DNA of 64,000 bases from a virus (IMGVR_UViG_3300025383_000010), one strand, 5' to 3'; positions 5,327 through 64,000 are shown, counted from the first letter of the stretch. Notes: generated by a model not told the origin, from the sequence alone. Program-made: numbers and translations.

Positions 5327-5656
5327 ATGAAGATTAACGAACTGCTCATGGAATCGTTTGATGACGAAGAAGAACTTGACATCGTAGACGATCCGGATAC
5401 TGATAAGGTTCCTCACATCGTAATGCAGTTCAAGAAGGCTCTTGACAACGGTGGTCGTTCGCCTGTTATCTTCAAGGACGGTGATAAGGTGAGCATCCCT
5501 GTTGCTGTTATGGCTGACTTCCTAAACGGCTATGATTCAATGAAGCCGTTTGAGCGTGAAGAATTGCAGAAGGTTGCAACTCAGAGCCTAGAACACTTCA
5601 AGGAAGCACTTCGTACTATGAAGCGTAACACTATGCATAAGAGTATCTACCGTTAA
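5327..5656 (+). CDS. Hypothetical late protein with MKINEL N-terminus
   Basis: ORF after a TAAATA motif; codon use matches the genome. Confidence 0.6.
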   Translation: MKINELLMESFDDEEELDIVDDPDTDKVPHIVMQFKKALDNGGRSPVIFKDGDKVSIPVAVMADFLNGYDSMKPFEREELQKVATQSLEHFKEALRTMKRNTMHKSIYR

Positions 5657-5762
5657 TTTGACCTACGTCAAAACCGTGTAGTTATTTTTACTCCCATATT
5701 GCTAAATACATATGAAGCCCGTAGTTAATCTACGGGTTTCCTATAATACAATAGGAGTACGA

Positions 5763-6044
5763 ATGGGAGAGTTCTTTAATTTAGTAGCCCAGGTTGGCTT
5801 TCCAATCGCTGCTGCATGTGGCGCTGGTTACTTCGTATTCCTTACATTGAAGTTTATTCTTGCGGGTGTGTCTGGTAGCGTATCAGGCATGAAAGGGATC
5901 ATTTCTTCTCTTGACAATCGTGTTAAGACAATGAACCATGATGTCATTCGAATTGATACAGTAGTTAGTAATGCTCTTGGCCTAAAACCAGACGTAGATC
6001 GCATTGCTCGTGCTGATGGTAAGACGGATGCAAGGAGAGACTAA
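5763..6044 (+). CDS. Small membrane/coiled-coil protein, paralog A
   Basis: AGGAG RBS; VGFPIAAA TM segment; similar to 6197-6505. Confidence 0.65.
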   Translation: MGEFFNLVAQVGFPIAAACGAGYFVFLTLKFILAGVSGSVSGMKGIISSLDNRVKTMNHDVIRIDTVVSNALGLKPDVDRIARADGKTDARRD

Positions 6045-24200: not shown

Positions 24201-24867
24201 TAAGAGTAAGTGTGATCCGGCGTTAGGTCAACAAGTTCACGAATATCTCGTAAAGATGGGAGTTGAAACACCGACAGTTGACAATGGACTGAGCCGTACT
24301 GATAAGATTGAAATCATTGAGCGTAAGTTTAAGGATATTATGGAGACTCTCGGGCTTGACCTAACTGATGATAGCTTAGAGGAAACCCCGAAGCGGGTCG
24401 CTAAAATGTATGTAGGAGAAATCTTTTGGGGACTTGACTATGAAGCATTCCCCAAGTGTACAACTGTTGCGAACAAGATGGGCTATGATGAAATGGTCGT
24501 TGAACGCAACGTGAATGTACAAAGTAATTGTGAACATCATTTTGTAATCATTGACGGTCTTGCTACTGTTGCTTATGTTCCCAACGAAAAGGTTCTTGGT
24601 CTCTCAAAGATCAATCGTATCGTTGAGTACTTTGCAAAGCGTCCTCAGATTCAAGAGCGACTAACTGAGCAGGTATTCCACACTCTTTGCTATATCCTTG
24701 AAACTGACAATGTTGCAGTTATGATTGATGCACAGCACTATTGCGTTAAGAGTCGCGGTGTTGAAGATACTGGTTCGTCAACTGTGACTTGTAAGCTCGG
24801 TGGTGGATTCAAGACTGATCCTGCAGCAAGAGCAGAGTTTCTTAGCATCGCACGAATGGGCAAGTGA
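24190..24867 (+). CDS. folE: GTP cyclohydrolase I
   Basis: ETPKRVAKM, CEHHF, GLSKINR, RPQIQERLT and HYCVKSRG. Confidence 0.95.
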   Translation: MSFNKSKCDPALGQQVHEYLVKMGVETPTVDNGLSRTDKIEIIERKFKDIMETLGLDLTDDSLEETPKRVAKMYVGEIFWGLDYEAFPKCTTVANKMGYDEMVVERNVNVQSNCEHHFVIIDGLATVAYVPNEKVLGLSKINRIVEYFAKRPQIQERLTEQVFHTLCYILETDNVAVMIDAQHYCVKSRGVEDTGSSTVTCKLGGGFKTDPAARAEFLSIARMGK

Positions 24868-25121
24868 AATACAAGTTTATCGTGACTCCTGAGGAACTTC
24901 TTAACAAAGTAGGTCCGGTTAATTGGGTTAATTGGTTTAGAGAGCCTAGTGGCTCAGAGGAGACTAACCGATACCGATGGGCTATGGAACAAATGCAGTC
25001 GCACTTCCCGGGAAAGTATGATTTAGAAGAAGCATACGATCCCGTGTCAATGACATTCAAGTATCGCTTGAAGTTCCTCACAGAAGCAGATGAAATGTGG
25101 TTTAAACTTAAATATGAATGA
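24864..25121 (+). CDS. Small protein, WFxL(R/K)-family member
   Basis: Ends FLTEADEMWFKLKYE; GTGA-coupled to folE. Confidence 0.65.
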   Translation: MKYKFIVTPEELLNKVGPVNWVNWFREPSGSEETNRYRWAMEQMQSHFPGKYDLEEAYDPVSMTFKYRLKFLTEADEMWFKLKYE

Positions 25122-25302
25122 CGATATCATTCATACCTACAAGATTCAAATTAAGATCAATCCCAATTCGGTTAATTTGAGTCAGCAATGGTTGAATGAA
25201 AACTGTAAGGGCACGTGGTCTATCGGAAAGAACATAGATAGCTACGACCTGCACTTTGAGTACGAGGAAGACGCTCTGTTAACTTGGTGGAAATGGGGAT
25301 GA
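25114..25302 (+). CDS. Small protein, WFxLRW-family member
   Basis: WLNENCKG..FEYEEDALLTWWKWG. Confidence 0.6.
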   Translation: MNDDIIHTYKIQIKINPNSVNLSQQWLNENCKGTWSIGKNIDSYDLHFEYEEDALLTWWKWG

Positions 25303-25625
25303 CTGACAAATATCTTAAAATTATCGAAGCCATGCGTAAACAAACCGAAGAACGTATGCAGTGGCCTGTTGAAAAACTGCGAGAATGGATTCGTCAGGTA
25401 CATGGTCCTGAAATGCGGGAACTTGTAGGTGAAGAAGCAGAGCAAATGCTCATTGTTCTTAAATTAGTGGGACATTACTCTGATTCCAATAATCAAAGAA
25501 CTCATACCTATTTCTACGAACATGCCGGCAAAGAATACAGAGTAACATATGGAATAGGGGGCGAACCCTTAGTAGAGGAAGTGGTTTATGATATCTGCCC
25601 AGATAACAATCAAAGCAGTAGATGA
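25299..25625 (+). CDS. Hypothetical protein
   Basis: ATGA-coupled ORF. Confidence 0.55.
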   Translation: MTDKYLKIIEAMRKQTEERMQWPVEKLREWIRQVHGPEMRELVGEEAEQMLIVLKLVGHYSDSNNQRTHTYFYEHAGKEYRVTYGIGGEPLVEEVVYDICPDNNQSSR

Positions 25626-25794
25626 TGTTATTCCTATTATTGACTGGTGTGAAAAGAATATCGGTACTAAAGCTCCCTTTAAGGATTGCGTAGACACCGA
25701 AAGACCGTGGGTATGGGATGCCGCTTATGGTACAATGACATATTATTTTGCTAACGAAGGAGATGCAAGTTGGTTCGCATTGAGGTGGCTTTAA
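25588..25794 (+). CDS. Small protein, WFxLRW-family member
   Basis: WCEKNIG..FANEGDASWFALRWL; ends TTGAGGTGGCTTTAA. Confidence 0.7.
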   Translation: MISAQITIKAVDDVIPIIDWCEKNIGTKAPFKDCVDTERPWVWDAAYGTMTYYFANEGDASWFALRWL

Positions 25795-42834: not shown

Positions 42835-43163
42835 TGCAAATCGCAATCGCAGATACAGATGGTCGTGTTCATCTTTGGGGTGATGTCACTAGCATCAACG
42901 AAGATGGTTCCATTAACTTTTACGTACTTAATGGCGCCTGGGATGGTAGGTACCACAATGGACAGGTCTTTGTAGAGTACACTAAGGCACTGTTTCCCGG
43001 TATGCTTGTATGGGTCGGTAATGCTCCCGGCGACTACAACCACGCTATACCTTGGATTCAAGATGAGATTAGCAAGCCAGACTATGTAATGACGCAGCCT
43101 GATCAGTATGTTGCTCCTATTAGGGAAGTTGAAGAAGATGAATGGGATGATATTCCCTTCTGA
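42834..43163 (+). CDS. Hypothetical protein with acidic DDIPF tail
   Basis: SSB-like C-terminal DDIPF. Confidence 0.55.
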   Translation: MQIAIADTDGRVHLWGDVTSINEDGSINFYVLNGAWDGRYHNGQVFVEYTKALFPGMLVWVGNAPGDYNHAIPWIQDEISKPDYVMTQPDQYVAPIREVEEDEWDDIPF

Positions 43164-43395
43164 CAACTGCTATCTTCCGATCCATAGGATAGAGTATGTT
43201 CGTGTTGGTATACAGCGGACATGCCACACAGAGGTTTGGAGTAACTTTGTCAACTCTCTCCCGGTAACAATTCAGTCTGGTTGGGATAACTTAGCACGAG
43301 AGCGTATCAAAGATTGGAACGGTACTCTAATCAACGATGTAGTAGTGTTCAATACCGAGCAAGACAAGATGTGGTTTATATTGAGGTGGTCGTAA
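43147..43395 (+). CDS. Small protein, solo WFxLRWS-family member
   Basis: FNTEQDKMWFILRWS; ends TTGAGGTGGTCGTAA. Confidence 0.7.
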   Translation: MIFPSDNCYLPIHRIEYVRVGIQRTCHTEVWSNFVNSLPVTIQSGWDNLARERIKDWNGTLINDVVVFNTEQDKMWFILRWS

Positions 43396-47049: not shown

Positions 47050-48249
47050 ATGACTGATAAAAAACTACAAGACTGCTCCTTTTGTGGGAAGCACAAAGAT
47101 GAAGTTGCAAAACTAATCGTAGGAGATGATGTAGCAATTTGCAGTACTTGCATTGCACTATGCAACGAACTCATGGATGATGACAAGGTTGTAGACATCA
47201 TTGAAAAGATTGATACTGGTGACTTTGATGCATATAGCATTAAAGAACATTTGGATCAGTTAGTCATTGGCCAACATAGCGCCAAAGAGATTCTTGCAGT
47301 CGCTATCTCAAATCACTATAAGAGGATTACCAACCCACCTAAGGATTTAGAAATCCAGAAAGGTAACGTGTTGTTGATTGGGCCAACTGGTTCGGGTAAG
47401 ACATTGCTTGCTAAGTCAGTTGCAAAGTATCTTAACGTTCCCTTCGTAGTTGCAGATGCTACTAACCTCACCGAAGCTGGTTATGTAGGTGAAGATGCTG
47501 AGTCAATGATTGCTATGTTGCTTGCACTTGCTGACAACGATGTTAAGAAGGCAGAACGCGGTATCGTTTTCATTGACGAAATTGACAAGATTGCTCGTAA
47601 GAGTGAAAGCACTAGCATTACCCGTGACGTTAGTGGCGAAGGCGTACAGCAAGCATTATTGAAGATGGTTGAAGGTACCAAGTGTCGTGTAAGCCCAGTT
47701 GGCAAAAGAAAACACCCACAGGGCGAGACTGTTGAAGTTGACACTAAGAACATCTTGTTCATTGCAGGTGGTGCATTTGTTGGACTTGAGCAGATTATCA
47801 AGAATCGTACTCAGGGTTCAAGCATTGGATTCGGAGCAGAAGTAAAGAGTAAGACTGAAAAGCAGGATATTACTGATGTATCTCCCGATGATCTTACTCG
47901 CTTTGGTATGATCCCCGAATTCATTGGTCGTTTCACTACTACGGTTACGTTACAAGAACTTACGCTTGATCAATTGGTAGAAGTGTTGACTGATGTTAAG
48001 AACAACTTCATTGACCAGTACAAGTATCTGTTCGCTATTGATGGTATTGAACTTACATTCACTTGTGATGCTATTAGACGTATTGCACAGAACTGCATTG
48101 ATCTAAAGACCGGCGCTCGTGGTCTACATACTGAGATTGAAAGAATCTTGATGCCACATATGTTCCATATTCGTAAGTATAAGGAACAGGATATCAAAGA
48201 ACTAGTGATTGATGTTGCTCTAATTGAGAACCCAAAAGCATTAGTTTAA
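47050..48249 (+). CDS. clpX: ClpX ATPase
   Basis: CSFC..CSTC zinc finger, [26 protein letters not shown] and IGF loop. Confidence 0.95.
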
Positions 48250-59067: not shown

Positions 59068-59304
59068 ATGGATATGAATAGTATTTTAAGTCAGTTAAAG
59101 GGACTGATTGCAGAGGGTGATGGTAAACTAAGCAACAAGCGTGTTATCACTATCCTTTGCACTCTCATGCTCATCACTGCATTTAGTGCCAATGTCTTTA
59201 TGGCAAAGCACATTGATGACAACATCTTGAACAGCATCATGTTCATTATCATCGGTGGTATGGGCATCACTGGTATGGAAAAGTTTGCACCTAAGCAACA
59301 ATAA
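59068..59304 (+). CDS. Two-TM holin-like protein
   Basis: GKLSNKRV followed by two TMs and EKF. Confidence 0.5.
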   Translation: MDMNSILSQLKGLIAEGDGKLSNKRVITILCTLMLITAFSANVFMAKHIDDNILNSIMFIIIGGMGITGMEKFAPKQQ

Positions 59305-59307
59305 CAC

Positions 59308-59336
59308 TTGACATTACCTCGTTTTGGGCGTATAAG
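59308..59336 (+). promoter_or_regulatory. Sigma70-type promoter driving the SWIM gene and the small-gene array
   Basis: TTGACA-17-TATAAG. Confidence 0.75.
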
Positions 59337-59364
59337 AAATTATATCGCTTGAAACGAGGTTTTT

Positions 59365-59751
59365 ATGCTTAACATCGGTGACACTGTTACGATCAAAGTT
59401 CGCAACGTCATGTATGACGTTCGCCATCGTTATCCCGCAGGTATGATTCCCGAGTTCAACGAATATACCGGTACCGTCATGCGCGAAAAGTTCTTTGCCG
59501 ATGACGAGATTGGTATCACCAGCGACACCTTTGGTATCAAGTTCCGTCGCATTCGTCTTGATCGCATCGTTGAAGTCAATGCTGCCAAGGTTGAGTTTAC
59601 TCCTGTCAAACATGAGCGTGAAACTAAGGTAGTTCAGGGTAGTAAGGGTAACTCGTATATTGTCACTCGTGATGGTAGCAAGACCACTTGCACTTGCCCC
59701 GGTTATGGTTTCCGCAAGACTTGCAAGCATGTTCATGAGGCATTTGCGTGA
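59365..59751 (+). CDS. SWIM zinc-finger protein
   Basis: GSKGNSYIV..CTCPGYGFRKTCKH. Confidence 0.8.
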   Translation: MLNIGDTVTIKVRNVMYDVRHRYPAGMIPEFNEYTGTVMREKFFADDEIGITSDTFGIKFRRIRLDRIVEVNAAKVEFTPVKHERETKVVQGSKGNSYIVTRDGSKTTCTCPGYGFRKTCKHVHEAFA

Positions 59752-59987
59752 AACTTGATGTTATAAACAATGCTCATCACCGAAATATGTATGTGTCCGC
59801 TAAAGCAGCATTTGTTAACGCGAGTCCTTCTAGTTTTGATAACGCTGAAAAGTTTTGGAAAGAATTGGGTGAAGCATACGATATGAGAATTATCAAACCT
59901 ATATACAAGGGCAAGTTTCCGGTTGTTGAAGCACTAGAGTTTAACACCGAAGAAGCATATTCCTGGTTTCTGTTGAGGTTTTCATAA
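59748..59987 (+). CDS. Array gene (ends WFLLRFS)
   Basis: FNTEEAYSWFLLRFS. Confidence 0.75.
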   Translation: MKLDVINNAHHRNMYVSAKAAFVNASPSSFDNAEKFWKELGEAYDMRIIKPIYKGKFPVVEALEFNTEEAYSWFLLRFS

Positions 59988-60196
59988 TGCGTTGGGTTCG
60001 TGAACATAGCAAGCCTTATAGGCTGGAACTGAAATATAATCTCGGTGAGGAACGTTGGTCAGAAGTTCAAGATACACTAAATGAAGCTAAGAAGTGGTGT
60101 AGACAGAACAATATGTTTATCTGGGACGATGGGTTGTTCTACATTGGTTTCATTAACCATCGTGACATGGCTTGGTTCTTGTTGAGGTGGTCATGA
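59987..60196 (+). CDS. Array gene (ends WFLLRWS)
   Basis: WCRQN..FINHRDMAWFLLRWS. Confidence 0.8.
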   Translation: MRWVREHSKPYRLELKYNLGEERWSEVQDTLNEAKKWCRQNNMFIWDDGLFYIGFINHRDMAWFLLRWS

Positions 60197-60414
60197 AAAC
60201 TGCATTCACATTTAAGAAATGGTATTGGGGACCATTGCATGATGATCAGCCGCCCCATTGGTGGACCAACTTCGCAGAGGGTAAATCTATCAGTGTCAGC
60301 AAGATAACTGAACTTAGCCGTGTTGCTAAAGTTAGACAAAAATCAAATGGTAGCCTTCGTGTAGTGTTCAAGTCTCCCGGTGATCTAACGTTTTTTATTT
60401 TGAGGTGGTCATGA
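60193..60414 (+). CDS. Array gene, MKTAFTF copy 1
   Basis: FKSPGDLTFFILRWS. Confidence 0.8.
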   Translation: MKTAFTFKKWYWGPLHDDQPPHWWTNFAEGKSISVSKITELSRVAKVRQKSNGSLRVVFKSPGDLTFFILRWS

Positions 60415-60587
60415 CCGAAGTTGATATTAGCTTTGTCGGAAATTGGTCTAACAGCAAGATTACCGAGTGTAACGAATGGTTGGACAAATATCCTCACTTC
60501 GGGGAGATTGATATTGACGGGGCATCATGTATCATGTATTTTGAAGATGAAAGGGATGCTATGCTCTTTATGTTGAGGTGGTCATGA
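60411..60587 (+). CDS. Array gene
   Basis: FEDERDAMLFMLRWS. Confidence 0.8.
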   Translation: MTEVDISFVGNWSNSKITECNEWLDKYPHFGEIDIDGASCIMYFEDERDAMLFMLRWS

Positions 60588-60871
60588 GTTACTATGAAGC
60601 AAAAGATAGAGAACTGTACTCTAAACTGATTCAGTTTTATCCTAGGGTAGAACCTGGTCATGCGTTTGTATCCAATCTCTTTAACGAGTTTGGAAAGCAA
60701 GATGCTATTCCCAATTATGAGGACCCTATGTATTCATGGGCCAAACGTCTTGAACAGTGGCTGCCCGGTAAAGTCGGTTTGATTAGAAATCCAGATGATG
60801 CTGATAATTGGGACAAGTTTATCGTAGTTGATCAAGGGCTGTATGCTTTTGCATTGTTGAGGTATTCATGA
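60584..60871 (+). CDS. Array gene
   Basis: YAFALLRYS. Confidence 0.75.
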   Translation: MSYYEAKDRELYSKLIQFYPRVEPGHAFVSNLFNEFGKQDAIPNYEDPMYSWAKRLEQWLPGKVGLIRNPDDADNWDKFIVVDQGLYAFALLRYS

Positions 60872-61092
60872 AAACTGCATTCACATTCAAGCGTCGGTGG
60901 TGGGGTATAGATCACGAAGATCAACCTCCCCAATGGTGGAAAAACTTCCTTGATGCATATAGCCCGTCGGGAGAAGCTGCATATAAAGAACTTAGTAAGA
61001 TTGCTAAAGTTAGACACATGACCAACGGAAATATCCGTGTAGTGTTCAACAGTCCCGGCGATCTATCGTTCTTTATCTTGAGGTGGTCATGA
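60868..61092 (+). CDS. Array gene, MKTAFTF copy 2
   Basis: FNSPGDLSFFILRWS. Confidence 0.8.
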   Translation: MKTAFTFKRRWWGIDHEDQPPQWWKNFLDAYSPSGEAAYKELSKIAKVRHMTNGNIRVVFNSPGDLSFFILRWS

Positions 61093-61316
61093 TTACCTAT
61101 ATAGAAAGCACATATGAGTCCCGTGGAGCCAGTTTCACCTTAGCTACGCCGGTATTACACAAGGTTTGTTTTAATCATTATGATCGTTTGGAAGTAATGA
61201 ACTGGTGTGAACAAAACTGTAAGGCTAAGTTCTATCCCGGGCCTTCTTGGGCAGGGCATTTTTTTGAGTTTGAAGACGATGAAGACGCTGTTTGGTTTGC
61301 GTTGAGGTGGTCATGA
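61089..61316 (+). CDS. Array gene
   Basis: WCEQNC..FEDDEDAVWFALRWS. Confidence 0.8.
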   Translation: MITYIESTYESRGASFTLATPVLHKVCFNHYDRLEVMNWCEQNCKAKFYPGPSWAGHFFEFEDDEDAVWFALRWS

Positions 61317-61549
61317 CACATACCATCAAGCTCGCTGCTGGATTTGATGATCGCCCGGAATGGTTCAAGGAGCGGTATAGTGCTGTCATGGCTGATGCGA
61401 GAACCAACGACAAGTGGTTGGTTCCTAAGCCATGGACTTGGTATTGGAATGACAAATATGAAGGCAAGATTCGCATACGTAATAGTAGCCTGTTTGTTGA
61501 ATTTGACAGTGAGCAGGATTTTATGTGGTTCATTCTGAGGGAAGCATGA
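61313..61549 (+). CDS. Array gene
   Basis: FDSEQDFMWFILREA. Confidence 0.75.
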   Translation: MTHTIKLAAGFDDRPEWFKERYSAVMADARTNDKWLVPKPWTWYWNDKYEGKIRIRNSSLFVEFDSEQDFMWFILREA

Positions 61550-61821
61550 TAAACAACTACGATGTTAACAGTCTGTATCCTTATTTGCCTCCGGTTGACT
61601 TCCTAGCTAGAGGCGGCATCAAACCTTACATATATGTAGGAATGTGGACTCCTACAGAGTGGCGTGTCTATTCAGTAGTAACCGAGATTGCTGATTGGAT
61701 CAAGCAACAGCCTGAGGATATGTGGGTAGGAGCAGAAAACACCAAGCACCTAGTTCCATATGCTCATCCATACGCAGTCAGCCCAGAGTTAGAAGCCTGG
61801 ATTAAGTTGAAGTGGGGATGA
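61546..61821 (+). CDS. Array gene
   Basis: ELEAWIKLKWG. Confidence 0.7.
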   Translation: MINNYDVNSLYPYLPPVDFLARGGIKPYIYVGMWTPTEWRVYSVVTEIADWIKQQPEDMWVGAENTKHLVPYAHPYAVSPELEAWIKLKWG

Positions 61822-62135
61822 CTAAAACTATTAGCGGAATTGAAATGAGGGATCGTCTCTTGAAACATATTAATGACCCAAGAGTGCGGGAACTAGAGAA
61901 CAAATATTTTATTCTCTATCGCAAGAGGGTGCAACGCAAGACCGGTGGGTGTAAGAACAAGTGGATTGTTCAGATCAAGATGCGCCCTGACTTTAATTAT
62001 ATGCAGGATCGGCCAGAAGCACTAGCAATCATGGAATCGTTCGGTGGTGAAGACTTTGGTCCTCGCTCTAGGGTATTCAGAAGGTATAGTGATGCTGAAA
62101 AGGCTTGGGTCTATTTAACGTTGAGGTGGTCATGA
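61818..62135 (+). CDS. Array gene
   Basis: FRRYSDAEKAWVYLTLRWS. Confidence 0.75.
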   Translation: MTKTISGIEMRDRLLKHINDPRVRELENKYFILYRKRVQRKTGGCKNKWIVQIKMRPDFNYMQDRPEALAIMESFGGEDFGPRSRVFRRYSDAEKAWVYLTLRWS

Positions 62136-62386
62136 AAGATTATACTTTTTATAGAATGACTGTTATAATGGATAAATGGACTCGTATTCCTGTGCGTGAC
62201 AAATGGTGCCATCCTAACCATGTGTTTGGATTAAGGAATCCATTAAGCCAAGAAATGAAAGAATGGCTTGACAAAAATGTTAAAGCACATTATGCTATTC
62301 TTGAGGATGAAGATAATTTCGTGAACCATGACATAGCTTTTTCTAGTGAATATGATGCAGCTTTTTTTCTATTGAGGTGGTCTTGA
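62132..62386 (+). CDS. Array gene
   Basis: WLDKNV..FSSEYDAAFFLLRWS. Confidence 0.8.
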   Translation: MKDYTFYRMTVIMDKWTRIPVRDKWCHPNHVFGLRNPLSQEMKEWLDKNVKAHYAILEDEDNFVNHDIAFSSEYDAAFFLLRWS

Positions 62387-62595
62387 CCTACCAAGTAACT
62401 TTCCGTGAAGGTGAAGAACCTGAATGGTATGTGAAAGCATATGACAACGCTTGGGATAATAGATCAGGGTTCACTACATGGGCAAGTGTTTGGAATGAAT
62501 ATTATCCTGATACTAACTTGACTCATTCTGTTAGAGACATAACTGTTACCTTTAAATCCGAAGAAGATTTCACTGTATTTTTATTGAGGTTATAA
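62383..62595 (+). CDS. Array gene (TTG start)
   Basis: FKSEEDFTVFLLRL. Confidence 0.7.
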   Translation: MTYQVTFREGEEPEWYVKAYDNAWDNRSGFTTWASVWNEYYPDTNLTHSVRDITVTFKSEEDFTVFLLRL

Positions 62596-62861
62596 TGAGT
62601 AAGAAAACTGTTTTGAGAGAGATTACACACTTCAAGTTCATCCAGACTAAACACGCTCCGCCGGGCGATCAATGGGCTAAGCCACTCTACATCATTGACG
62701 CTTGTAAGGGCTGGACTGCTGCAAGTATTGATATGGAAGAGGTCAGAAACATTGTTGACCCTAATCGCAATATCAGTGGTAAGAATGGTACTCGTTGGAA
62801 GTTCCGCAAGTTTGAAGATGCTGACAAACTATGGATGTATCTTGTTTTGAGGTATTCGTAA
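62595..62861 (+). CDS. Array gene
   Basis: FRKFEDADKLWMYLVLRYS. Confidence 0.75.
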   Translation: MSKKTVLREITHFKFIQTKHAPPGDQWAKPLYIIDACKGWTAASIDMEEVRNIVDPNRNISGKNGTRWKFRKFEDADKLWMYLVLRYS

Positions 62862-63067
62862 TGGCACCGTTGCTTGATGATGGTCCAATCTGGTATTTTG
62901 AAGAAAAGAAACTAATATGGTCATTCTTGCCTAGAAAGTGCAAGGTCTCCGGTGAAACATTGTGGTTCAAGAAGGCTTGGAGAATTAGATTTCATGACTG
63001 GGGCGGGCACGAAGATCGCTGGTATTGTCAGCGAGAATATCTTTGGAAACTACTAAAAGAGGATTGA
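62861..63067 (+). CDS. Terminal array-coupled gene (Trp-rich)
   Basis: TAATG-coupled; ends EYLWKLLKED at the next promoter. Confidence 0.65.
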   Translation: MAPLLDDGPIWYFEEKKLIWSFLPRKCKVSGETLWFKKAWRIRFHDWGGHEDRWYCQREYLWKLLKED

Positions 63068-63092
63068 CATCACCTTCATAACCTGCTATAAG
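63064..63092 (+). promoter_or_regulatory. Sigma70-type promoter
   Basis: TTGACA-17-TATAAG, then AAGGAG. Confidence 0.75.
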
Positions 63093-63113
63093 AGTAATTG
63101 TAAGGAGACATAT

Positions 63114-63527
63114 ATGACTATGCATTTGCTCGGACCTGCATTCTCTACGCTCAACACTAACAAGCGTAAGAAGAAGATTTCCGACAGTCAGTATCATAAG
63201 TTTGCTATGGAGCTTAACAGTTACAATAAGCAGATGAAGAAGTATGGTCTCAAGCCCAAGACGCTAGACGAATACATTGCTTATCGTCAGGGTAAGTACA
63301 AGCCCACTCTTAAGGGTGCTCCTAAGGATCCTATGAAGGCTACTACCCTTCGCCGCGAGACTCCGGTAGTTCCGTCTGGTGATGGCATCGGTACTACTTA
63401 CGCTCGTAAGGAAAAGGTTTACACTGGTACGTTGATTAAGGGCATTGCAACTATGCACAAGAGCAATGCTGTTCCTATCATTAACGAAGAACAGATGCAC
63501 GAAGTTGCCCGTATGAGGAGGGGGTAA
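63114..63527 (+). CDS. Phage hypothetical protein
   Basis: YTG..IKGIATMHKSNAVPI. Confidence 0.75.
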   Translation: MTMHLLGPAFSTLNTNKRKKKISDSQYHKFAMELNSYNKQMKKYGLKPKTLDEYIAYRQGKYKPTLKGAPKDPMKATTLRRETPVVPSGDGIGTTYARKEKVYTGTLIKGIATMHKSNAVPIINEEQMHEVARMRRG

Positions 63528-63691
63528 TGACCGTTAAGGAACTCAAAGAACTGCTTGACAAGATGCCGGATGATGCTAAAGTATTCTACGAAGGCGGCGA
63601 ATACAAATATGATTACCGCAGCGTCTACAAGGTAGAATACAACGAACATACAACTTTAGCCTCTTCTGGTAATTCTGTTTTAATTAGGTGA
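63527..63691 (+). CDS. 54-aa MTVKEL-type protein (not in the ORF track)
   Basis: MTVKELKELLDKMPDDAKV; GAGGAG RBS. Confidence 0.6.
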   Translation: MTVKELKELLDKMPDDAKVFYEGGEYKYDYRSVYKVEYNEHTTLASSGNSVLIR

Positions 63692-63694
63692 TAT

Positions 63695-64000
63695 ATGACT
63701 GATATTTCTACTGAACACATGGATGCTGTCATCAGTGACGGTATTGCGTTTCTTCGCTCTATCACGACCGCATACGGTTCTGATGAGGGCATGAAATTGT
63801 GGGATACTATTGCTAGTACTCTTGACCCTAATATCAAGGGCAAGATTTTCTTTTCCATGCTTACTAATACGCATGAGGATCGTGTTACCTTGTCTGGTGC
63901 GGTTGCTGGTACTAACAAGATCAATTGCATCAAGATCATTCGTCAGTATACTGGTTTGGGGCTGGCCGAAGCCAAGAATGCGTATGAAAACGCTGGTGAT
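63695..64000 (+). CDS. Protein with ribosomal bL12 (L7/L12) C-terminal-like domain, runs off the window
   Basis: NKINCIKIIRQYTGLGLAEAK; AGGTG RBS. Confidence 0.7.
   Translation, partial: MTDISTEHMDAVISDGIAFLRSITTAYGSDEGMKLWDTIASTLDPNIKGKIFFSMLTNTHEDRVTLSGAVAGTNKINCIKIIRQYTGLGLAEAKNAYENAGD

Follow-up and report, generated by a model that had tools for sequence, protein, structure and literature searches.

A row of small genes on a viral genome fragment raises the question of what is gained when each gene closes with nearly the same few codons, and when those codons appear to act as protein tail, ribosome-binding site, stop and next start at once. The row lies at positions 59748-63067 of a 64,000-nucleotide (nt) stretch of the viral record IMGVR_UViG_3300025383_000010 (the window; coordinates given without a contig name are counted from its first letter), which is part of a 113.5-kb IMG/VR record about 31% complete. 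A first-pass annotation made from the sequence alone had proposed that this locus is an integrase-free, integron-like library of mini-genes, or cassettes, whose shared junction couples their translation and allows units to be gained, lost or shuffled, and that it had no described precedent. We find that the locus is probably a coupled array of paralogs in which cassettes turn over at the junctions, situated in a hyperplastic early region of a T4-like jumbo phage. Both the coupling and the shuffling are supported, as far as sequence comparison can carry them, by codon choice at the junctions and by the positions of breakpoints between relatives.

Layout of the cassette array

Fourteen consecutive small open reading frames (ORFs) occupy 59748-63067 on the + strand, comprising 13 family cassettes of 58-105 amino acids (aa), named in order A, B, C, D, E, C', F, G, H, I, J, K and L, and a terminal non-family ORF, M. 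The ORFs and junctions are found at the coordinates given by the first-pass annotation, which had counted about 13 back-to-back mini-genes and run the array to 63067; 13 of its ORFs do belong to the family, but membership of the fourteenth (62861-63067) is not detectable by profile comparison. Neighbouring ORFs overlap by 1-4 nt via ATGA or TAATG, leaving no intergenic space, and the start codons include one GTG (59748) and one TTG (62383). All 13 cassettes close with a strand, an acidic turn and a helix, ending in the tail F/W-x-L-R-W-S or a near variant. The pattern of strand, acidic turn and helix ending h-x-L-[RK]-[WYF]-x holds for 12 of them, the exception being G, whose ending LREA has E where the pattern calls for an aromatic. 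In the following list, an exact junction is a perfect copy of the 15-mer TTGAGGTGGTCATGA.

59748-59987, + strand: cassette A, 79 aa, GTG start, tail FLLRFS, junction TTGAGGTTTTCATAATG
59987-60196, + strand: cassette B, 69 aa, tail FLLRWS, exact junction
60193-60414, + strand: cassette C, 73 aa, basic, tail FILRWS, exact junction
60411-60587, + strand: cassette D, 58 aa, smallest member, tail FMLRWS, exact junction
60584-60871, + strand: cassette E, 95 aa, tail ALLRYS, junction TTGAGGTATTCATGA
60868-61092, + strand: cassette C', 74 aa, paralog of C, exact junction
61089-61316, + strand: cassette F, 75 aa, tail FALRWS, exact junction, modelled member
61313-61549, + strand: cassette G, 78 aa, tail FILREA, junction CTGAGGGAAGCATGA
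61546-61821, + strand: cassette H, 91 aa, tail IKLKWG, junction TTGAAGTGGGGATGA
61818-62135, + strand: cassette I, 105 aa, basic, tail TLRWS, exact junction, same subtype as L
62132-62386, + strand: cassette J, 84 aa, tail FLLRWS, junction TTGAGGTGGTCTTGA leading to the TTG start of the next
62383-62595, + strand: cassette K, 70 aa, TTG start, tail FLLRL, junction TTGAGGTTATAATG
62595-62861, + strand: cassette L, 88 aa, tail LVLRYS, junction TTGAGGTATTCGTAATG
62861-63067, + strand: terminal ORF M, 68 aa, ends KLLKED, without a Shine-Dalgarno-type tail

Related arrays occur on other contigs, among them L008 and L012. The L008 ortholog of cassette A, which matches the family profile described below, is 52% identical, and cassette H has 42% identity to L008 6216-6515. 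A homolog of ORF M (44% identical) likewise ends the array in L012. The arrays of both relatives are closed, after a TAATG junction, by a non-family gene of 135-136 aa (L008:7322-7732, L012:6993-7400; 83% identity between the two) that is absent from the array in the window. An assembly artefact was rejected as an explanation of the row, which recurs in independent assemblies (at least eight contigs, with 23 read).

A probable ribosome-binding site within the tail codons

The 15-mer is exact at six junctions (60182, 60400, 60573, 61078, 61302 and 62121) and present as a variant at the other seven (59973, 60857, 61535, 61807, 62372, 62584 and 62847). With up to three mismatches allowed it occurs 14 times in the window as against 2.2 +/- 1.4 times in shuffled sequence, none of 100 shuffles reaching 14. 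Within the tail, Leu is encoded by TTG in 12 of 13 cases and Arg by AGG in 12 of 12, codons with genome usages of 18% and 5% respectively, while the Leu one codon upstream is CTG, TTG, CTA or TTA and the conserved Phe is TTT or TTC, which agrees with the earlier observation of a constant TTG-AGG pair preceded by synonymous variation. The frozen part of the junction is its last ~15 nt, identity dropping to 60-73% over 48 nt.

By base-pairing rules, GAGGTGGTC pairs at nine positions, one of them G-U, with the generic 3' end of 16S rRNA. The predicted Shine-Dalgarno (SD) duplex has a median of -10.3 kcal/mol for the starts in the array compared with -5.3 kcal/mol for 144 other genes of the phage, of which 1.4% reach -10 kcal/mol. 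The complementarity to the anti-SD sequence that had been noted beside the stop/start overlaps is therefore reproduced, and these values support the view that the tail codons would form a very strong SD site for the following gene. We infer from this arrangement that consecutive cassettes are probably translationally coupled.

An exact scan of IMG/VR for TTYNNNTTGAGGTGGTCATGA returned at least 178 sites on at least 120 contigs, and nearly every site listed ends one tail-bearing ORF and starts another; at least 672 motif-ending ORFs were found across the listed loci of those contigs. These loci provide a contrast between coupled and uncoupled tails, for which ends matching the search pattern were removed. 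Tails with an overlapping or abutting next start use TTG in 62% and AGG in 68% of cases, whereas tails without a start within 30 nt use them in 26% and 29% and more commonly have Lys in place of Arg (Fisher p = 0.0004 for TTG, 0.003 for AGG and 0.012 for Lys). Such relaxation where no gene follows fits selection for an embedded SD site. The tail motif itself is retained at the protein level where no gene follows, and Sinorhizobium phage Phosso has the family in ATGA-overlapping arrays with the tail ..MLFKL[RA][WF][SG] and without GAGGTGG codons. Since the tail is kept in both situations, in Phosso with other codons, the protein motif stands on its own, and the SD site in the source lineage is, judged by its codons, an additional nucleotide-level constraint separate from the protein-level one.

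Gain, loss and exchange of cassettes

Comparison with relatives indicates that cassettes come and go at the junctions. L012, a 344-kb relative whose array adjoins its DNA ligase gene, reads B-D-E where the window reads B-C-D-E; cassette C is a precise 218-nt indel with a copy of the 15-mer on either side, and upstream of B the homology starts at the junction. L154 shares 98.3% identity with the window over a stretch that runs from 61072, at the junction preceding F, past the end of the array, and has six different cassettes upstream of that junction. L010 and L011 have flanks that are 99.7-99.9% identical and differ by the replacement of one 81-aa cassette by two, with boundaries at junctions. 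In another lineage, two deletions of several cassettes each distinguish L071 from L075 (98.4% identity); both deletions are bounded by junctions, and their joints share 22-35 nt. In these four independent comparisons, three of them between 98-99.9% identical relatives, all eight breakpoints lie within ~20-35 nt of a junction. Relatives thus differ in gene content with breakpoints at the motif, and do not show an identical order without them, in line with the earlier proposal of gain, loss or shuffling at the 15-mer, albeit as an occasional process.

Cassettes common to the window and L012 are more alike than their core genes. B (L012 5129-5338, 96% aa identity), D (5335-5511, 98%) and E (5508-5795, 87%) have synonymous divergences (dS) of 0.43, 0.11 and 0.20, and cassette L, the best conserved across relatives with 86-88% aa identity in L008 and L012, has a dS of 0.28 versus L012, compared with 1.17 for DNA ligase. 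The L012 copies of B, D, E and L adjoin the ligase gene and not the SWIM zinc-finger gene that precedes the array in the window, where the ligase locus holds a lone family member. The combination of low cassette dS and different loci points to transfer after the core genomes had diverged. Ratios of non-synonymous to synonymous divergence between phages are 0.06-0.48, and by this measure the cassettes are real genes under purifying selection.

A large and apparently unnamed protein family

The 13 cassettes appear to be members of one large family of small proteins for which we found no name. A family profile built from 140 aligned members matched 4,837 representatives of 50%-identity clusters at E<=1e-3 among 1.84 billion; the matched proteins are nearly all 55-160 aa long, with the match running to the C-terminus. 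Ten of the 13 cassettes match at E<=0.01, cassette K aligns to the profile with an hhalign probability of 92%, and the subtype formed by I and L does so with a probability of 74% (E 2.7e-5). The proteins range in isoelectric point from 4 to 10 and are rich in Trp (median 5.5%). Among cultured phages, Phosso has 29 profile matches and Agrobacterium phage Atu_ph07 has five, and no member was detected with the profile in XaC1, T4, S-PM2, HTVC008M, CcrSC or RaK2.

The source record contains 14 profile matches, 10 in the array and four elsewhere, so the family, first seen as the single array at 59748-62861, has further members in the window:

24864-25794, + strand: second small cluster, with members at 24864-25121, 25090-25302 and 25588-25794 and one non-member ORF
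43108-43395, + strand: solitary member, tail FILRWS with TTGAGGTGGTCGTAA, 46 nt upstream of the DNA ligase gene

Arrays of proteins with the LRW tail occupy three different loci among the phages compared. At the DNA ligase locus, where the window has its solitary member, L010-L013 have a full array. A further context is a 23-kb ENA contig on which four genes (69, 72, 87 and 69 aa), orthologs of cassettes C and L among them, form an array amid T4-like gp15 and gp13 structural genes.

Searches of Pfam, PHROGs and PADLOC assigned no family to any of the 140 members, and the profile had no match among PDB sequences. Array DNA gave no match to GenBank phages by megablast or blastn, and tblastn with cassettes D and F returned nothing meaningful. 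Our literature search found no description of the family, its junction or coupled cassette arrays in jumbo phages, and a survey of jumbo phages does not mention the family (PMC7824862).

Predicted structure and possible function

Confident AlphaFold2 (AF2) models of cassette F and the divergent cassette L (predicted local distance difference test, pLDDT, 83 and 81) have the same predicted order of elements, β-β-β-α-β-β-α, which suggests a fold shared among members. A near-invariant Trp lies in the first helix of the models and the conserved tail forms the last. The upstream Trp helix noted earlier corresponds to W39, conserved in at least 90% of the 140 aligned members and located within helix 33-43 of the F model. 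Models and alignments together suggest that each protein would combine a variable N-terminal part with a conserved core of helix, beta-hairpin and terminal helix, the last bearing D-x-x-x-F-x-L-R-W-S. The tail blocks of both models are ordered helix ends (pLDDT 84-89), so the idea that the C-terminal helix serves for docking on a common partner is not upheld: the tail is predicted to be the structured terminal helix of the fold and not a free docking peptide.

Foldseek found nothing in the PDB at E<=0.001, and VIA-align gave Z<=5.7 for F and Z<=5.3 for L with differing lists of weak matches. Residues 19-75 of the F model resemble the ferredoxin-like RRM and ACT-like folds and MzrA (Z 5.1-5.6, root-mean-square deviation 2.1-2.3 A over 52-57 residues), but there is no sequence relation, the scores are within chance topological likeness and the list for L differs. 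A function based on these likenesses was therefore rejected. Searches of BFVD and the ESM Atlas returned uncharacterised viral proteins only. Our best guess at the role of the family is that of diversified early effectors on one scaffold, and an anti-defence function is speculation.

One subfamily has an additional N-terminal stretch of ~40 aa that matches the start of the Pfam Gp23 major-capsid profile:

L095:2822-3205 and L087:2436-2792, - strand, with proteins P0036, P0043, P0054 and P0133: capsid-like subfamily, Pfam Gp23 match

Residues 20-76 of P0054 align to residues ~75-131 of T4 gp23. The matched stretch probably includes the Gol peptide, which binds EF-Tu and triggers the Lit defence. 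Gol is a 29-residue stretch within the most conserved region of gp23 (PMC3014915). Members of this subfamily could be capsid mimics or decoys.

Source phage and genomic setting

The source virus is a T4-like jumbo phage. Its DNA polymerase is of the T4 type, with 47% identity to the enzymes of Phosso and Atu_ph07, and rIIB, gp13 and gp15 families are found on the contigs of relatives. The features next to the array are as follows:

59308-59336, + strand: promoter-like TTGACA-N17-TATAAG (pattern match), upstream of the SWIM gene and the array
59365-59751, + strand: 128-aa gene with a C-terminal SWIM zinc finger, its stop overlapping the GTG start of cassette A
63064-63092, + strand: promoter-like TTGACA-N17-TATAAG (pattern match), overlapping the stop of ORF M

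The pattern TTGACA-N16-18-TATAAG occurs four times in the window, on the + strand (621, 54382, 59308 and 63064), as against 0.12 expected. Both sites flanking the array had been called as promoters by the first-pass annotation and are confirmed as pattern matches; they are the only such sites around the array and bracket a unit consisting of the SWIM gene and the array. The number of weaker matches to the promoter consensus within the array is not above the shuffled expectation. The pattern, in which the last base of the -10 element is G and not T, is probably the early-promoter type of the phage. The match of the SWIM gene to Pfam PF04434 is marginal (19.8 bits against a gathering cut-off of 19.6), with the CxCxnCxH residues visible, and L008 has an ortholog (64% identity) at the same position.

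Elsewhere in the window, a ClpX-like AAA+ protein with an N-terminal ClpX zinc finger is encoded at 47050-48249 (PHROG match, and Pfam match on the L012 ortholog). A homolog of ribosomal protein L7/L12 is encoded two genes downstream of the array (63695-64000, open at the end of the window), as recognized by Pfam Ribosomal_L12 on the 131-aa product of close relatives (L149:6564-6959). Between this gene and a 137-aa gene lies a 54-aa gene (63527-63691) that is missing in the 98%-identical L154, an indel independent of the cassette junction.

Weighing the explanations

A coupled paralog array with turnover at its junctions would operate as follows. A single family of small proteins, very large and unannotated, would have filled the hyperplastic early-gene region with its tandem copies. 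Their last codons, TTG AGG TGG TCA, appear fixed at the nucleotide level in the source lineage and, with the overlapping ATGA, would make up an extended SD site, a stop and the next start. Ribosomes finishing one cassette would then start the next, and the row would probably be translated as a coupled chain from one early-type promoter. As each unit starts and finishes with the same 15-35 nt, general homologous recombination could delete, insert, duplicate or swap whole units. The phage's own general recombination may thereby exchange units between arrays and between co-infecting phages, sparing reading frames and the coupling of neighbours, with selection against other breakpoints, and so for frame-preserving products, adding to the pattern.

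Several points weigh against this explanation. All comparisons are between metagenome assemblies, and L011 has a 100-N scaffold gap beside its cassette swap. The anti-SD sequence used is the generic bacterial one, which may differ from that of the host. The class of uncoupled tails is small (27 ends, 14 with Arg) and mixes the codon usages of different phages. Cassettes E, I and L carry the tail and yet miss the family profile at E<=0.01. Breakpoints at junctions could reflect the survival of frame-preserving recombinants and not a recombination hot spot. Finally, seven of eight near-identical relatives keep the cassette order of the window, which suggests that shuffling is occasional and turnover slow at that scale.

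This conserved order would also be expected from an ordinary tandem expansion of paralogs, in which the junction is inherited and kept for its SD site in overlapping genes but has no role in rearrangement, junction-bounded differences being simply those that purifying selection tolerates. Small domains are known to have expanded in particular jumbo-phage lineages, as with the ~35 zinc-ribbon copies of phage G (PMC7824862); the paralogs C and C' share only 62% aa identity, indicating old duplications; and the Phosso arrays of the same family lack a conserved 15-mer. We nevertheless regard such expansion as an unlikely account of the whole locus, given that the eight breakpoints in four comparisons are all near junctions and that cassettes are common to different loci of different phages with a dS 3-10x below that of a core gene, indicative of transfer and not of descent in place. 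We are doubtful, too, of the opposite extreme, a genuine mobile-cassette system in which units are excised and inserted at appreciable frequency, perhaps as mini-circles, and form a library of early effectors on one scaffold shared among co-infecting phages, with variable N-termini as baits or mimics and the capsid-like subfamily as decoys for capsid sensors.

The nucleotide identity of the junction could instead be a by-product if the L-R-W-S tail were mainly a functional peptide, such as a docking or degradation tag for the ClpX-like ATPase or the SWIM protein. The retention of the tail even without a downstream gene, the ClpX-like protein encoded at 47050-48249 and the SWIM gene preceding the array in two phages are all consistent with a tag, but the tail is the end of a well-ordered helix in both models and is not free, selection at the protein level cannot explain the choice of TTG and AGG or its relaxation at uncoupled ends, and no SWIM gene lies within the 4-7 kb examined on either side of the array in L010-L013. 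Because the tail is an ordered helix and the codon choice needs a nucleotide-level cause, a tag is improbable, and a degron was rejected as the principal explanation. Least probable is a true integron-like system with a dedicated site-specific recombinase using the junction as its attachment site, even though the architecture of the locus, with putatively promoterless units downstream of a single promoter-like site, recurring boundaries and content that varies, recalls one. No match to PF00589, the tyrosine recombinase family that includes IntI, was found in the 113.5-kb record (~31% of the genome), the control being positive in 14 of 14 genomes. A search of 59300-63200 for attC-like inverted repeats gave a single pair, its arms separated by 834 nt and one arm beginning within the 62121 junction, and no local hairpin; Rfam had no match at the junctions, the overlapping genes leave no intergenic site, and arrays of the family lie at several unrelated loci. 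The description of the locus as an integrase-free, integron-like library accordingly holds for the absence of an integrase from the record, and for integrons as an analogy only, there being no attC-like repeat.

Comparison with known systems

A precedent for this logic does exist, contrary to the first-pass annotation. The promoter-early stem-loop (PeSL) cassettes of T4-type phages have already been described as shuffling units exchanged by phage recombination on short homology without an integrase, and were likened to integrons by their authors (Arbiol, Comeau & Krisch 2010, PMC2839356; Comeau et al. 2014, PMC4122927). PeSL-mediated modular shuffling is the closest known system, with the same logic and genomic setting as the present array. 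Both occupy hyperplastic, variable regions of T4-like genomes and consist of functionally uncharacterised small genes bordered by a short regulatory repeat that is conserved, both have indels or replacements between near-identical phages bounded by that repeat, and neither has a known integrase. The PeSL, however, is ~100 bp long, intergenic and transcriptional, a sigma-70-type promoter with a terminator, whereas the present linker is 15-35 nt, coding and, as we read it, translational. PeSLs flank unrelated ORFans and insulate the units, whereas the present units are homologous and probably coupled to their neighbours. The composite early promoter and stem-loop terminator found between ORFs in PeSLs is absent from the present array, in which ORFs overlap by 1-4 nt. 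Mini-circles have been shown for PeSLs.

Like integron cassettes, the units described here, which are putatively promoterless, lie in one orientation behind a common promoter-like site and vary in content between relatives. They differ in being without IntI, attC or attI, in overlapping one another, in belonging to one protein family and in that their exchange most likely proceeds by homologous recombination. Classical translational coupling, with ATGA or TAATG overlaps and an SD site inside the upstream gene, is common among phage and operon genes. The present junctions share with it the stop/start overlap and the SD site 5-10 nt upstream within the preceding coding sequence, but here the block of SD site, stop and start is repeated 13 times, is also a structural protein motif and is common to at least 120 viral contigs. 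The ~35-copy zinc ribbon of phage G is similar in that many small-domain paralogs populate one jumbo phage genome, whereas reports of such expansions contain no conserved junction or cassette-level exchange (PMC7824862).

Implications

The sequences of the array suggest a case of dual coding, in which the same nucleotides would specify a structural protein motif and a translation signal. The natural contrast between coupled and uncoupled ends across phages makes the SD role testable. The junction also provides a search key for finding such arrays in metagenomes, and could be a template for synthetic operons in which small genes are stacked seamlessly and without polarity.

The majority of jumbo-phage genes are short and lack an assigned function. 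The present analysis places thousands of small phage genes in one family with a recognisable scaffold, and shows a way for small genes to be acquired, dropped and exchanged while those next to them stay intact. If the proteins turn out to act in host takeover or counter-defence, the arrays would amount to an inventory of such factors.

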